Below are positions 14,906 to 41,026 of a DNA stretch of 64,000 bases, in pieces. Source of the stretch: an uncultured Holophagales bacterium (GTDB taxonomy: Bacteria > Acidobacteriota > Thermoanaerobaculia > Multivoradales > UBA5704). Within the stretch, counting starts at the first letter, position 1. Each line of letters starts with the position of its first letter. The DNA lies in the NCBI GenBank assembly GCA_963842525.1, contig CAWJGT010000014.1:128001-192000 (forward strand), in the 5' to 3' direction. Below the pieces are notes generated by a model. It did no database searches, was not told the origin of the DNA, and saw only the letters and a program-made list of their open reading frames with translations. The translations under genes and the position numbers were made by a program.

Positions 14906-14933
14906 GTCCAACACGCCGCACCTGAACCGTGTC
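14906..14933 (+). promoter_or_regulatory. Putative ECF-sigma promoter GTCCAACA-N13-CCGTGTC (site A, CHAT-SAVED/sigma operon)
   Basis: Motif repeated 6 times with fixed spacing; here followed by RBS AGGAGG (14943) and ATG 14957. Confidence 0.7.
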
Positions 14934-14956
14934 ATTCAGGACAGGAGGTGCACAGG

Positions 14957-16906
14957 ATGGAATATCAGGACTTCACGATCGATGTACGCTCGGCCGAGGG
15001 GGGGCGATTCGAGGCCAGGGTGATCGACGCGCCGCTCGGCGGCAACCCCCGGGTGTTTTTCCCTCCTCCCCTCTCCCAGGAGGATCTGAAGACCCTGCAC
15101 GGGCTCTTCGACGGGTCGGGCAAGGAGGCGCCGGAGAAACCCTCGCCGAAAGCCCTGGCCCGCCAGATGGGGCAGCAGCTTCACACCGCTCTTTTTCGCG
15201 ACGGCGTGGCCGAGCTCTACCAGAAATGCCGGGCCACGCTCCTGAGCGACAAGAACACCGGGCTGCGGCTCCGGCTCAAATTCCAGCTCAAGGATACGGA
15301 GGCCGGCTACCTGGCTGCCCTCCCTTGGGAATGGCTGTGCGACCCCGCCTCCTGCGAGCTCCTGGCGACAGACCCGTGCACGCCCGTGGTGCGAGACATC
15401 GCCGTTCCCCGGCCCCAGGGGACTCTCGAAGTGGCAGGACCCCTGCGCGTCCTCGTCGTCGCCTCAGCCTCCAGCGACATGGGCCTCGACCTGGAGCAGG
15501 AGATCGAGCGGATGGCCGCGGCGCTCAAGCCTCTCGAAGAGTCCGGCAAGGTGAAGCTGGTCCGGCTCGCGACGGCTGACCCGAACGCTCTCCGCGAAGC
15601 CCTCAAGGACGACAAGATCCACGTCCTCCACTTCATGGGCCACGGCGGTTACGATCCCGAGTCCGGCAACGGCGCAGTCATCTTCGCGCAGGAGGGCGCG
15701 GGCAAGGACCAGGTCAGCGGAGAGCCGTTCGCCACCTATCTGAAGGAGCTTCCCAGCTTGCGCCTCGTGGTGCTCAACGCCTGCAAGACCGCGCGGTATG
15801 CCAGCCGGCGAGGCCCCTCGCTCAACCACGGCCTGGCCCCGGTCGTCCTGGAACGCACCCGGGTGCCCGCCGTGGTGGCGAACCAGTACACCATCTCCGA
15901 CACGGCCGCCATTGCCTTCAGCGAGACCTTCTACCGCCGCATCGCCAAGGGGGACCCGGTCGACGAGGCCCTCACCGAGGCACGGTTGCAGCTCTACCGG
16001 ACGAGTGCCGAATGGGCGACGCCGGTCCTCTTCCTCGCCGCACCGCACGGCAGGCTCTTCGCCCTGGGAGCGGCGCGCTCCGACAACGGACTCGTGCACC
16101 GTGAGAAAACCGAGATGATCCGCCTGGGAGTGCGGAGCTTCGATGGATTCGGCGGCGACATGAAGGCACGTAACGAGGCGGTCCTCGAGCTGGCCGGCTA
16201 TTTCGACGGCCGCTATATCAAGCGGAAGGAAGACTGGCAGGAGAAGATCTTCCCGGAGCTGCGAGCATTCCTCCTGAGATGGATCGATCCGCACCGGCCC
16301 CTGCTGCTCGATTTCGCCGCTCATTCCTCGATCGCTTTTGCTGCCGGCTGGGTCCTGGAGCCCAAGAGCGGCCTCGATGTGCGGGTATCACAACGCATCT
16401 CGGGAGAAGGGGTGCTCGATTGGCATCCCAAGGACGGCACGGAGCCGGACGGCTCTCTCTGGCTCGACCGGCCTGACATCGAGCTCGACCCCGAGGCTCC
16501 GGATGTGGCCCTGGCCCTCTCGGCGAGCCAGCCGGACGTGGCCGGCCACGTGCAGGACTTCGTCCAGCGCAAGAGCCTCTCGATCGGGCGGATCGTGGAC
16601 GCAACGGTTGCTCCCGAGCCCGGTCCCCACTCGGTACGCGGCGGAGCGCACGCCTTGGGCCTCGCCCAAGCGCTCCTCCCCCGCCTGCGGCCCAGGAAGC
16701 CTCACGAACGCAAGGGCCGCACCCACCTCTTCTGCGCCGCTCCCAATGCTCTCGTCTTCTACCTGGGACAGCTCGCGTCCTCGCTGGGGAGAGTCGTCCT
16801 CTACGAATTTGCCTTCCGTGCGGAGGATTCGTTCGGGCGGTATCAACAATCCATCGAGCTGCCACCACCCGGCGAAGCCTCTCAGATTCCAGGCGACGAC
16901 TGGTAA
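14957..16906 (+). CDS. CHAT (caspase-like) protease fused to C-terminal SAVED domain
   Basis: CHAT: LAALPWE, VLHFMGHG (His), VVLNAC (Cys), F..TFYRRI, EWATPVLF; SAVED: AHSSIAFAAGW, HLFCAAPNALVFYLGQ..VVLYEF. Confidence 0.88.
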   Translation: MEYQDFTIDVRSAEGGRFEARVIDAPLGGNPRVFFPPPLSQEDLKTLHGLFDGSGKEAPEKPSPKALARQMGQQLHTALFRDGVAELYQKCRATLLSDKNTGLRLRLKFQLKDTEAGYLAALPWEWLCDPASCELLATDPCTPVVRDIAVPRPQGTLEVAGPLRVLVVASASSDMGLDLEQEIERMAAALKPLEESGKVKLVRLATADPNALREALKDDKIHVLHFMGHGGYDPESGNGAVIFAQEGAGKDQVSGEPFATYLKELPSLRLVVLNACKTARYASRRGPSLNHGLAPVVLERTRVPAVVANQYTISDTAAIAFSETFYRRIAKGDPVDEALTEARLQLYRTSAEWATPVLFLAAPHGRLFALGAARSDNGLVHREKTEMIRLGVRSFDGFGGDMKARNEAVLELAGYFDGRYIKRKEDWQEKIFPELRAFLLRWIDPHRPLLLDFAAHSSIAFAAGWVLEPKSGLDVRVSQRISGEGVLDWHPKDGTEPDGSLWLDRPDIELDPEAPDVALALSASQPDVAGHVQDFVQRKSLSIGRIVDATVAPEPGPHSVRGGAHALGLAQALLPRLRPRKPHERKGRTHLFCAAPNALVFYLGQLASSLGRVVLYEFAFRAEDSFGRYQQSIELPPPGEASQIPGDDW

Positions 16907-17031
16907 TGCGCCGAGGCCCGATCAACGTTCCCCCTCTCCCGGCGGGGGATGGGCGGAAGATGGGAGAGGGGGCCAGGGGGTGAGGTCTCTCTCTGGCGGA
17001 AGGGAGGCTTCTGTGGAAAGCTACCTCCGGC

Positions 17032-39002: not shown

Positions 39003-40070
39003 GTCCCAATTGACCAGAGCAGTACGGTGGGATTGCGACATGGCTCAAGTGTGTGCCTCCCCTTTCAGGCTGATCTCGTCCCAATTGACCAGAGCAGTAC
39101 GGTGGGATTGCGACTCCACCATCGCGACCGGCGGCGTCGTCCTCAACATGGTGGTCCCAATTGACCAGAGCAGTACGGTGGGATTGCGACTCGATCTCCA
39201 CCGGCTGTCCCACTGTGGCGGGAGCGGTGCTCGCGTCCCAATTGACCAGAGCAGTACGGTGGGATTGCGACGTGATCAACCCCCAGGCGCCAGCCTCTGG
39301 AATGAGCTGGTCCCAATTGACCAGAGCAGTACGGTGGGATTGCGACGCCCCAGGCCTTCTTGTCCCCCCGGGAGCCGTAGGCTTCGTCCCAATTGACCAG
39401 AGCAGTACGGTGGGATTGCGACTCTGCTCCGGAAGATCGCTTGACTCGGTCTTGCAGGCCGAAGGTCCCAATTGACCAGAGCAGTACGGTGGGATTGCGA
39501 CTCTGTGAAAATCTTGGAGGCGGTTGCCATCTGGGCTTGCTCCTCGCCGTCCCAATTGACCAGAGCAGTACGGTGGGATTGCGACTTCTCAATTGACGTC
39601 GACGCTTTGCCCAGGAGCAAATCCCGGGACGGTCCCAATTGACCAGAGCAGTACGGTGGGATTGCGACTTCTGCGTTGTACATGTTCTGGAGGCTTCTTA
39701 CTGTTTCTGTTCCGAGTCCCAATTGACCAGAGCAGTACGGTGGGATTGCGACTATGATCCCCCTTATCCAGCTTTCCAGCTCTACACCCGGGAGAAAGTC
39801 CCAATTGACCAGAGCAGTACGGTGGGATTGCGACATCGTTCCCGGGTGCGCAGCCGGAAGGCGGGAAAGATCGGCCGTCCCAATTGACCAGAGCAGTACG
39901 GTGGGATTGCGACTTCTCCTGGACGGTGTCTCCGTCGAAAAGACCTTCGCTCGTCCCAATTGACCAGAGCAGTACGGTGGGATTGCGACGATGGTTTTGT
40001 CCGATCACATGGTTCAAACACACTCGGCCATGAGTCCCAATTGACCAGAGCAGTACGGTGGGATTGCGAC
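39003..40070 (+). CRISPR. CRISPR array 3: 14 canonical repeats / 13 spacers; degenerate trailer repeats at 40253, 40334 and 40938
   Basis: Same 37-bp repeat. Confidence 0.97.
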
Positions 40071-40112
40071 GACCTCCTTTCTTCCCCTGAAGGGTCGCGA
40101 GGATTTTGCGCG

Positions 40113-40932
40113 GAGCTGCTGCCGCCCCTCCGGGGCTTGGAAATGTTTTTGGCTCTGTACCCGGGGTCGGCGCTCCTCCGTCGCGCCTGACCCCGGGCTA
40201 CACGCCGCCACCCCCTCCGGGGGTTCTCTTTTTTGCCAATGTAACGACCGTTGATCGAATTCACCAGAGCAGTACAGTGGGATTGCGACTACATTTTGAT
40301 CAGAGTGGTGTCTACGTCGAAGTCGCCGCCCTCCTCCCAATTGACCAGAGTAATTCGGTGGGATTGCGACATGGAGGCGGGACGGACTGGGGCGACGGCG
40401 AGGCGCTTGCTCTACGCACGAACGGGTGGCTGTGGAATGGCCCCGGAGGGGCCGCGGCGTGTAGCCCGGGGTCAGCCGCGACGAAGGAGCGGCGACCCCG
40501 GGTAGGGAGACGAAAACATTCTCAAGCCCCGTAGGGGCGGCAGCCGTTTCCGGACCGCGCCTCAGTCGAGCAGATACCGTTCGTCAAACTCGATCTTGTT
40601 CTTCCGCAGCAGTGCGATCAGCTCGTCCTTGAACGAGAGCCGCGCATGGTGCTCTTCCTGGGTCCGGATGTAACGGCGGATCGCCGGCACCTGAGAGTCC
40701 TGGATGAACGGTGCGCGGTGTTTCGTGCTGAAGATGATGTGGAAGAGGAGATTGGTGAAGGTGTTTGCCATGGGGGCGGATTATCTCAGATGCGAGGGCA
40801 CGCGCAAGAGGTGATTCCGAGCTGCTGCCGCCCCTCCGGGGCTTGGAAATGTTTTTGGCTCTGTACCCGGGGTCGGCGCTCCTCCGTCGCGCCTGACCCC
40901 GGGCTACACGCCGCCACCCCCTCCGGGGGTTC
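40113..40932. mobile_element. REP-like palindromes (family C) around an internally deleted IS200/IS605-type TnpA
   Basis: About 115-bp direct copies at 40113 and 40819 and an inverted copy at about 40440-40545; related element at 55885-56108. Confidence 0.7.
40562..40771 (-). pseudogene. tnpA: Y1 transposase (IS200-like TnpA) remnant
   Basis: N-terminus HIIFSTKHR joined to C-terminus RYIRTQEEHH..SFKDEL..FDERY; the HUH core is missing. Confidence 0.8.
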
Positions 40933-41026
40933 TTTTGATCAATGTTGACCAGGGCAGTACGGTGGGATTGCGACTTTCTGACAGGAGAGGGAGTAGGCTG
41001 GCGCTGCGGCGCCTTCGTGGGCAGAG

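Follow-up and report, generated by a model that had tools for sequence, protein, structure and literature searches.

The DNA analysed here, a stretch of 64,000 nt from an uncultured soil bacterium of the Holophagales (assembly GCA_963842525.1, contig CAWJGT010000014.1, positions 128,001-192,000; hereafter the window), carries a type III CRISPR (clustered regularly interspaced short palindromic repeats) island in which cas genes and repeat arrays are preceded by genes for two caspase-like proteases, a sigma factor of the extracytoplasmic function (ECF) group and a membrane anti-sigma factor. The assembly is 9.95 Mb in size and the genome 96.4% complete. Since the G+C content of the window is ~68%, genes were called from Pfam matches together with codon-position G+C rather than from the length of open reading frames (ORFs). 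All components of the island lie on the + strand, in the order CHAT-SAVED protease, ECF sigma factor, membrane anti-sigma factor, TPR-CHAT lipoprotein, small peptide, type III-D-like cas operon closing with a TIR-SAVED effector, and three arrays. An initial annotation had described one co-directional run with six units headed by the same bipartite motif; this was borne out, with all Pfam-supported genes on the + strand and the motif present six times against 0.11 expected, and the end coordinate that it gave (40974) is the end of degenerate repeat remnants.

A terminator-like hairpin with a T-run (14876-14897) lies just 5' of the first motif copy, P1 (14906-14933), which itself stands 24 nt 5' of the ATG of the CHAT-SAVED gene (14957-16906). 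The encoded protein of 649 amino acids (aa) combines an N-terminal caspase-like CHAT domain (residues 77-354; Pfam CHAT, 1.5e-27) with a C-terminal SAVED sensor (residues 455-638; Pfam SAVED, 1e-23). It has neither signal peptide nor transmembrane segment (top hydropathy window 1.52) and looks cytoplasmic. His229 and Cys276, 47 residues apart, are invariant in 18 sequences, and a profile of the protein matched the SAVED domain of Cap4 (7yib, 1.4e-38) and Haliangium SAVED-CHAT (8tl0, 9e-15), with the His and the Cys aligned with the 8tl0 dyad. Full-length relatives are many; a word-based search returned 605 proteins at E <= 0.001, those with a named source being mostly from Thermoanaerobaculia. 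The second gene (17032-17643) encodes an ECF sigma factor of 203 aa (Pfam Sigma70_r2 and r4_2; TIGR02937 sigma70-ECF, 83.6 bits versus a cut-off of 42.9), for which generic ECF sigma factors alone appeared among PDB sequences.

The anti-sigma gene (17653-18486) starts 10 nt after the sigma stop codon and encodes a single-pass membrane protein of 277 aa that gave no Pfam match. Alignment of 13 orthologues revealed strong conservation of residues 1-95, then a variable linker (columns ~100-150), an invariant arginine ahead of an Ala/Leu/Gly-rich segment and a moderately conserved C-terminal domain. The transmembrane segment is predicted at residues ~134-152 (hydropathy 1.78) and is preceded by arginines. 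An AlphaFold2 (AF2) model has helices within residues 3-97 and a periplasmic beta-sandwich at residues 166-271, the predicted local distance difference test (pLDDT) score being below 50 over residues 107-164, a span that includes the predicted transmembrane segment. The CHCC zinc site is absent, as no cysteine occurs within residues 1-100 of the 13 aligned orthologues, and Pfam zf-HC2 gave sub-threshold matches in six of the 13 (E >= 0.075). Two paralogues from the same genome, L114 (34% identity over 276 residues, E 5e-27) and L116 (28%, E 2e-16), pass zf-HC2 with 26.4 and 28.6 bits (threshold 22.2), and these two and many class-level homologues have HxxxCxxC where the CRISPR-linked clade has other residues. 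Homology to paralogues that pass zf-HC2, taken together with the replaced ligand positions, identifies the 277-aa protein as a predicted zinc-binding anti-sigma (ZAS)-family member that has lost its zinc ligands. Its profile gave chance-level matches to PDB sequences (E >= 0.18), and Foldseek with the model returned beta-sandwich look-alikes (phage baseplate proteins, azurin) for the periplasmic domain and no match for the helical domain. The stretch A-F-P-D-V-E-P...S-D-E-E of the anti-sigma factor was considered as a clade-specific cleavage or docking site and rejected, being present also in L114, which has no adjoining CHAT-SAVED gene.

The fourth gene (18683-21646) encodes TPR-CHAT, a protein of 987 aa from a probable GTG start at 18683, with a strong match to CHAT (Pfam, 7e-71) in addition to TPR families. 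A signal peptide with Cys14 is followed by an N-terminal beta-sandwich, a TPR array and then the CHAT domain. The short hydrophobic N-terminus ends in L-x-x-C, which resembles the lipobox consensus, in 13 of 13 orthologues, a signal that supports export as a lipoprotein and upholds the earlier suggestion that this second CHAT protein is exported. His829 and Cys878 are invariant; judged by sequence and comparison, the catalytic dyads are intact. The AF2 model of TPR-CHAT (mean pLDDT 69) is good solely for the N-terminal beta-sandwich and the TPRs, and two low-confidence stretches contain sequence derived from a repetitive extragenic palindromic (REP)-like element, the second replacing a helical segment that orthologues keep. 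When TPR-CHAT was compared with PDB sequences, TPR proteins crowded the matches. Copies of the GC-rich REP-like element lie at 16962, 18510 (- strand), 18665 and 21036: two occupy intergenic gaps of the sigma cassette, a third overlaps the probable GTG start of TPR-CHAT, and one copy is in frame inside the TPR-CHAT ORF. The TPR-CHAT protein of a related locus, L011, has a similar in-frame insert in another place.

Downstream, the motif copy P2 (21652-21679) lies 64 nt 5' of a small ORF (21743-21961) whose acidic, proline-rich product of 72 aa begins with an N-terminal P-F-L-A-D, gave no Pfam match and is followed, 3' of the gene, by a long GC-rich inverted repeat. The peptide loosely resembles the A-F-P-D-V-E-P stretch of the anti-sigma factor, which may be chance in low-complexity sequence.

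The third copy, P3 (22082-22109), stands 65 nt 5' of cas6 (22174-23082; Pfam CRISPR_Cas6, 4.7e-17), with which the cas operon begins. It is followed by cas10 (23079-24848), encoding 589 aa with a Pfam match to Cas10-Cmr2_palm2 only and no detected HD domain; the palm-2 motif is GGDE, as in five of six aligned orthologues, with GGDD in one. Then come a csx10-like fused RAMP gene in two frames (24848-27089) and three Csx7/Cas7-like RAMP genes (27076-27909, 27912-28823 and 28828-29766), all with Pfam RAMP matches. The first of the three scores 120 bits with TIGR02581 Csx7 against a cut-off of 108, and TIGR02674 Csx10 is the best family, below its cut-off, for both halves of the fused gene. With Cas10 and RAMPs of the Csx10 and Csx7 types, the predicted effector complex is of type III-D-like composition; NF041225 gRAMP gave only fragments far below the cut-off, and Cas10 and the RAMPs are separate genes. 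The frame of the csx10-like gene changes near 25846 (region 25780-25900), the orthologue at L020 is a single ORF of 749 aa, and the sole public contig that spans 25846 (run X1, depth 2.4) lacks one letter there; either an error in the assembly or a polymorphism may account for the shift. A 229-aa protein with a poly-proline stretch (29783-30472) gave no Pfam or NCBIfam match and is kept at the same position in related loci (tblastn matches in L005, L006, L014 and L020). The operon closes with the TIR-SAVED gene (30472-31728; Pfam TIR_2 and SAVED), whose product matches the 'TIR_SAVED fusion protein' 7qqk with an E value of 2.2e-58 over residues 3-392; this near full-length match in a type III context, with no difference seen, makes it an ordinary member of its kind. 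The Cas10 of the window is the single Cas10 match in the whole genome, and no SMODS cyclase was found in this 96.4%-complete genome; Cas10 is therefore the likely ligand source for both SAVED proteins.

A 37-nt repeat forms the three arrays, which hold 60 perfect or near-perfect repeats, each array being preceded by a motif copy and a conserved leader: P4 (31872-31899) with array 1 (32287-33534, 17 repeats), P5 (35247-35274) with array 2 (35683-37880, 29 repeats) and P6 (38567-38594) with array 3 (39003-40070, 14 repeats). Degenerate repeats follow array 3 at 40253, 40334 and 40938-40974. Between arrays 1 and 2, pieces of a reverse transcriptase-Cas1 (RT-Cas1) gene are spread over three frames (33676-34836), covering positions 1-123 of 205 in RVT_1 and 136-207 and 201-283 in Cas1; an intact Cas1, matched over its full length, is encoded away from the island on contig C3 (G000:C3:1745851-1746723). 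Eight tandem copies of a 63-bp unit (96% matches) occupy 37910-38421, in the interval that separates arrays 2 and 3, and around them the segment otherwise duplicates the region 5' of array 2 (35104-35403 versus 38424-38723, 97%).

Promoter-like motif in this genome

The motif GTCCAAC-N15-CGTGTC has six exact matches in the window, all on the + strand, at 14906, 21652, 22082, 31872, 35247 and 38567. The expected count of 0.11 comes from shuffles, none of which (0/100) reached six, and allowing one mismatch added no match in the window. In each of the three window arrays the motif lies ~390 nt 5' of the first repeat; these three leader copies are paralogous, so that the window offers four independent units: the operon headed by CHAT-SAVED, the peptide gene, the cas operon, and the leaders as one family. 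In the entire 9.95-Mb genome, nine exact copies were found, every one of which heads a CRISPR-related unit. The three copies outside the window (loci L001-L003, at C3:978886, C12:86236 on the - strand and C22:91059) each lie 5' of the same ~230-nt leader core and the same repeat, and mark further CRISPR arrays. In these leaders the sequence 5' of the motif and the distance from motif to leader core differ from those of the window leaders; the flanks do not align, and MAFFT did not place the motif in register with that of the window leaders. The 13 fixed motif bases are therefore kept in unrelated flanks. Genome-wide matches with one mismatch numbered seven, not above a reversed-pattern control.

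The boxes are constant and the 15-nt spacer varies, in the window, in the genome and in other loci. The AA-N16-CGT spacing of the motif is that of the mapped DdvS promoters of Myxococcus xanthus, GTAA-N16-CGT, and AAC and CGT boxes at such spacing have been described for ECF promoters (PMC6061681). No motif copy stands directly before the sigma gene, and the 125-nt gap that separates it from CHAT-SAVED is filled by a REP-like element; the sigma gene would therefore be co-transcribed with CHAT-SAVED. A scan of 14600-33000 for the sigma-70 consensus found no site (1.1 expected), and terminator-like sites in the same interval were not enriched (9 versus 11.8 expected).

Conservation of the cassette and the motif in other genomes

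We scanned species genomes with an alignment of 18 CHAT-SAVED relatives and took the best 80 of 504 confirmed stretches as loci: 21 (L004-L024) match both CHAT-SAVED domains, with 38-65% identity in these full-length proteins, and 59 (L025-L083) match residues ~1-370 alone. By tblastn with the proteins of the window, 16 of the 21 full-length loci (L004-L018 and L024) have a sigma gene and then an anti-sigma gene directly 3' of CHAT-SAVED, as in the window, and TPR-CHAT comes next in 15 of these 16, the contig of L009 ending before it. The 59 CHAT-only loci yielded no anti-sigma, two sigma and five TPR-CHAT matches. By tblastn, 12 of the 16 cassette loci have cas6, cas10 or RAMP homologues. L008 holds a type III-B operon (Cmr2, Cmr3, RAMPs and Cas6); in L010 a RAMP and a Cmr2-like Cas10 lie downstream, and an AAA ATPase, a SMODS cyclase and a SAVED protein upstream (5555-9924), resembling a cyclic-oligonucleotide-based antiphage signalling system (CBASS). 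On the L012 contig cas6 is found 5 kb downstream (L118), and L017 has repeats of the same family as the window. The most distant cassette locus, L018 (40% identity), has no cas genes or repeats within 10 kb and a ThiF-family neighbour (6700-8820). Cas genes or repeats thus adjoin 15 of the 16 cassette loci, most of them III-D-like. The neighbourhoods of L010 and L018 mirror the mixed CBASS and CRISPR island of M. xanthus.

Five full-length CHAT-SAVED loci without the cassette (L019-L023, 38-40% identity) adjoin type III-D-like or III-B genes or arrays; the assemblies that hold two of them, L023 and L021, also hold the cassette loci L007 and L024. That the cassette is found with type III systems of two subtypes speaks for a functional link and against mere co-inheritance, and these comparisons support the view that the type III locus belongs with CHAT-SAVED and the sigma/anti-sigma/TPR-CHAT cassette in a single conserved unit. 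The initial annotation had called for just such a check of co-occurrence and had cautioned that sigma/anti-sigma/TPR-CHAT cassettes are common. They are: with E <= 1e-8 as the limit, 54 of the 401 genomes sampled from the class contain an anti-sigma homologue (a tally that includes the unpublished genome G179), and this genome has three further cassettes, whose sigma factors are 38-41% identical to that of the island, with no adjoining SAVED-bearing CHAT protein and no exact motif. When the motif was sought before the sigma genes of these paralogous cassettes, only a similar CCAAC-N16-CGTC was found, near the sigma start of L116, and nothing clear at L114 or L115. Given that the cassette is common and has paralogous copies without CHAT-SAVED, the module is a widespread envelope-signalling unit of which one clade is tied to CHAT-SAVED and type III CRISPR.

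Motif copies in the other genomes make its conservation independent of the paralogous leaders. The 382,527 bp of L004-L024 contain 18 matches to a looser pattern, TCCAAC-N14-16-CGT[GC]T, compared to 0.65 expected under a first-order Markov model (maximum of three in 100 simulations), and 17 of the 18 matches are in promoter positions. Eight lie 26-50 nt before CHAT-SAVED (L005, L006, L007, L008, L010, L011, L017 and L024), others before cas6 (L004, L009) or cas10 (L015), before a peptide ORF that is succeeded by cas or cmr genes or itself follows TPR-CHAT (L007, L008, L010, L014, L016), and one before a truncated CHAT-SAVED copy and sigma in L017; the eighteenth, within the CHAT-SAVED ORF of L021, looks like chance. 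In L016 the motif reaches cas6 by way of the peptide ORF. L017 (5705-11208) has ~2.8 kb between CHAT-SAVED and sigma, with the second motif and the truncated CHAT-SAVED 5' end now before sigma, which looks like a rearrangement that keeps the promoter ahead of the sigma gene. The motif is conserved across genomes whose proteins share just 40-63% identity.

The peptide gene is part of this pattern. ORFs of 37-67 aa analogous to that of the window lie 57-64 nt 3' of the motif in L007, L008, L010, L014 and L016, and the six loci, window included, encode peptides of 37-72 aa with an N-terminal P-[WFS]-[FL]-A-[DE], which L010 fits loosely, and a tail rich in acidic residues and proline; the ORF often heads a cas or cmr operon.

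From its autoregulatory position and its co-conservation, we infer that the motif, which stands before the sigma-holding operon, cas6, cas10, the peptide and every array, behaves like the promoter of the ECF sigma factor of the island. The earlier proposal of a visible regulon that includes the cas operon and the arrays is thus upheld at the level of sequence, across genomes.

DdvS/DdvA and the alternatives for release of the sigma factor

Little is known about the ways in which CRISPR systems are turned on. The single well-studied ECF-controlled case is DdvS/DdvA of M. xanthus, described in two papers (PMC6061681; PMC11506125) on which the following account draws. DdvS, which is an ECF sigma factor, and the single-pass anti-sigma factor DdvA, a cytoplasmic zinc anti-sigma domain joined to a periplasmic TPR-CHAT of ~900 residues, control four promoters, which drive a CD-NTase with a CHAT-then-SAVED effector, ddvS-ddvA itself, a type II CBASS, and a type III-B cmr operon that reads into an array. 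Loss of DdvA or expression of DdvS gives phage resistance, and both this defence and the DdvS regulon were shown experimentally; DdvA processing depends on RseP, again by experiment, and CHAT self-cleavage followed by RseP was proposed. The natural trigger of DdvA is not known in M. xanthus, its CHAT-SAVED protein counts for the authors among the CBASS effectors (PMC11506125), and fused DdvA-like proteins are reported from Myxococcota and one Comamonas only (PMC11506125); the system is described as nearly confined to that phylum.

The island resembles this arrangement in its ECF sigma factor, its single-pass anti-sigma factor with a cytoplasmic sigma-binding domain, and its periplasmic TPR-CHAT with a His-Cys dyad. 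AA-N16-CGT promoters, here predicted, occur several times, among them one directly ahead of the cas operon and another ahead of the sigma operon, which would give autoregulation; a CHAT-then-SAVED effector is listed beside the sigma genes, and the main regulon, in the island a predicted one, is a type III locus. Foldseek with the TPR-CHAT model gave DdvA as the best full-length match apart from pure TPR proteins (8rw5, E 4e-11; 8rot, 1e-9), ahead of Csx29 (8eey_B, 6e-9) and separase. Unlike in DdvA, the anti-sigma factor and TPR-CHAT are encoded separately here, TPR-CHAT having its own lipoprotein signal. In further contrast to M. xanthus, CHAT-SAVED is first in the sigma operon and has no CD-NTase partner, each leader has a motif (the M. 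xanthus leader has no DdvS promoter, its array being read through from the cas operon), and the island has a III-D-like effector complex, an added TIR-SAVED, a conserved small peptide gene and a host from the phylum Acidobacteriota. We conclude that the island, in which these parts recur in unchanged order, is most probably a split acidobacterial variant of the DdvS/DdvA kind rather than a system of a new kind. The claim in the initial annotation of a candidate new system is accordingly not supported, as it had missed DdvS/DdvA, which already combines a membrane-spanning anti-sigma factor, a periplasmic TPR-CHAT, a type III regulon and a CHAT-then-SAVED neighbour (PMC6061681; PMC11506125). The four differences that it had listed (CHAT before SAVED, a membrane-spanning anti-sigma factor, an exported second CHAT and a visible regulon) do separate the locus from CalpL, Craspase and Haliangium SAVED-CHAT; they do not separate it from DdvS/DdvA. 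Literature searches, with supplements (e.g. Table S7, PMC11506125) outside their scope, found no mention of an acidobacterial form or of CHAT-SAVED acting on an anti-sigma factor.

Other protease-coupled type III systems are more distant. Like CalpL/CalpT/CalpS (type III-B), the island places a SAVED-fused protease with an ECF-type sigma factor and an anti-sigma factor beside a type III locus, with a possible logic of cyclic oligoadenylate (cOA) to protease to sigma; unlike in that system, the protease is CHAT and not Lon, the anti-sigma factor is membrane-anchored with a periplasmic domain, there is a second, exported protease, and the regulon is visible. Haliangium ochraceum SAVED-CHAT/PCaspase (10.1101/2023.06.23.546230; 8tl0) shares the fusion of CHAT to SAVED, the aligned dyad, a type III locus and a sigma gene nearby. 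Its domain order is reversed (CHAT at 282-456 of the 496-residue 8tl0 chain versus 159-345 in the island protein), and the SAVED domain of the island is closer to Cap4 (7yib). Type III-E Craspase (Cas7-11, the TPR-CHAT protein Csx29, Csx30 and CASP-sigma) likewise has a TPR-CHAT protease, an ECF-like sigma factor and an anti-sigma-like partner in a type III context; the island differs in having a multi-subunit effector with Cas10 in place of the single-protein Cas7-11, and its TPR-CHAT, owing to the lipoprotein signal, could not dock on a cytoplasmic effector complex; Csx29 is cytoplasmic.

We consider it likely that the locus is a defence island of the DdvS/DdvA kind, with type III CRISPR under sigma control, and represents a split form that occurs in Thermoanaerobaculia. 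In the resting state, the single-pass anti-sigma factor would keep the ECF sigma factor at the inner membrane, with TPR-CHAT as a separate lipoprotein protease on the periplasmic side. Once the anti-sigma factor was inactivated, presumably by regulated proteolysis as proposed for DdvA, the sigma factor would read GTCCAAC-N15-CGTGTC promoters and transcribe its own operon (CHAT-SAVED, sigma, anti-sigma and TPR-CHAT), the peptide gene, the operon from cas6 through cas10 and the RAMP genes to TIR-SAVED, and all six arrays of the genome; such promoter function and autoregulation would accord with established knowledge, as would the next step, in which the III-D-like complex would sense target RNA and Cas10 would make cOA that activates TIR-SAVED and the cytoplasmic CHAT-SAVED. 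Read in this way, the island would show the logic of DdvS/DdvA in another phylum, in separate parts that are easier to dissect and tied to III-D-like and III-B systems, with a regulon readable from nine motif copies that are all CRISPR-linked.

Several observations weigh against this assignment. The Foldseek match to DdvA has a template modelling (TM) score of only 0.17-0.19, on a model of mean pLDDT 69; PDB sequence searches with sigma, anti-sigma and TPR-CHAT returned no DdvA or DdvS chain, so homology is weak; and the island anti-sigma factor lacks the zinc ligands that matter in DdvA. No longer (fused) anti-sigma relatives were found at E <= 0.001, which is weak evidence. The evidence for a promoter role of the motif is its position and conservation, and with at least 18 ECF-like sigma matches in the genome, another sigma factor could in principle read it. 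The csx10-like frameshift and the RT-Cas1 in pieces might mean that this copy is partly decayed, although the X1 contig without the extra letter speaks otherwise.

How the anti-sigma factor would be inactivated is a further question. Control may be purely of the DdvA style: the sigma factor would be released only from outside, by TPR-CHAT acting on the anti-sigma factor and subsequent intramembrane proteolysis, and CHAT-SAVED would be an induced, cOA-activated abortive-infection effector like TIR-SAVED. We regard this as a strong contender that falls little short of an even proposition. The module is present three more times in the genome without CHAT-SAVED and hence would be self-sufficient, five of the 21 full-length CHAT-SAVED loci stand beside type III genes without the cassette, and the M. 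xanthus authors take their CHAT-SAVED protein for a CBASS effector (PMC11506125). Haliangium SAVED-CHAT reportedly spared the neighbouring sigma factor and cut a second protease (10.1101/2023.06.23.546230). However, co-regulation alone leaves unexplained why CHAT-SAVED is fixed directly before sigma in 16 of 21 loci; the presence of other effectors, e.g. TIR-SAVED, at the distal end of cas operons varies. The M. xanthus CHAT-SAVED is also listed beside ddvS-ddvA, and the characterised CRISPR proteases CalpL and Csx29 are described as acting on anti-sigma-like partners.

The same fixed position of CHAT-SAVED as first gene of the sigma operon would be accounted for by a feedback relay, the model of the initial annotation, in which cOA-bound CHAT-SAVED would cleave the cytoplasmic part of the anti-sigma factor and free the sigma factor, an inside input besides the outside one from TPR-CHAT that would complete a loop of positive feedback. 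This relay, for which CalpL/CalpT/CalpS and Csx29/Csx30/CASP-sigma are precedents, we regard as less likely than not. It is consistent with the predicted cytoplasmic location of CHAT-SAVED, with the alignment of its H229/C276 dyad with Haliangium SAVED-CHAT, and with the variable, low-confidence linker between anti-sigma domain and transmembrane helix on the cytoplasmic side. A complex prediction for CHAT-SAVED with anti-sigma residues 1-130 scored 0.00 in two runs, which counts neither for nor against binding. Against such a feedback step stand the cassette-less CHAT-SAVED clade, the three paralogous cassettes of this genome without adjoining CHAT-SAVED or exact motif, the occurrence of A-F-P-D-V-E-P in the paralogue L114, which has no adjoining CHAT-SAVED, and the sparing of the neighbouring sigma factor by Haliangium SAVED-CHAT. 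With CHAT-SAVED at the head of the sigma operon and no CD-NTase found, a direct test becomes possible of the hypothesis that the second messenger of a type III system, by way of a caspase-like protease, influences in turn how the CRISPR locus is transcribed.

Both inputs might be combined in one switch, a picture that we find doubtful: TPR-CHAT would report an envelope or phage cue, cOA-loaded CHAT-SAVED would cut the same anti-sigma factor from inside, and a first hit on viral RNA guided by CRISPR RNA (crRNA) would amplify the cas genes, crRNA from six arrays, both SAVED effectors and the switch itself, with the peptide (P-[WF]-[FL]-A-[DE]) as damper or decoy. If true, this would name a candidate for the DdvA trigger, the M. 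xanthus island encoding a CHAT-then-SAVED protein beside ddvS-ddvA; the conserved small peptide is a further component.

That the motif is instead the site of another regulator or another ECF sigma factor that co-regulates CRISPR components seems improbable to us. The many ECF paralogues of the genome would allow it, but the motif heads the sigma-holding operon in eight orthologous loci, its AAC and CGT boxes are typical of ECF promoters at ECF spacing, and these boxes are kept while the 15-nt spacer varies. Chance adjacency, in which a cassette of a common sort would have come to stand next to a type III locus by accident, is hardly credible: the cassette is indeed frequent (54 of 401 class genomes, three more copies here), yet it occurs in 16 of 21 full-length loci when the anti-sigma factor occurs in 0 of 59 CHAT-only loci, cas genes or repeats, representing two type III subtypes, adjoin all but one of those 16, and the exact shared motif is found nowhere else in the genome than at CRISPR-linked units.

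Two genes upstream of the island complete the description of the locus. A DEAD-box helicase gene (13531-14757) is directly upstream; the leader transcript of a Synechocystis III-Dv system reportedly binds the DEAD-box helicase CrhR, according to a preprint, and the position of the helicase gene next to the island is probably coincidental. Further upstream, at 11156-13351, lies a gene for a GGDEF-EAL protein whose EAL match ends at profile position 117 of 236 while the ORF runs on in compositionally odd sequence, which may reflect another frameshift.

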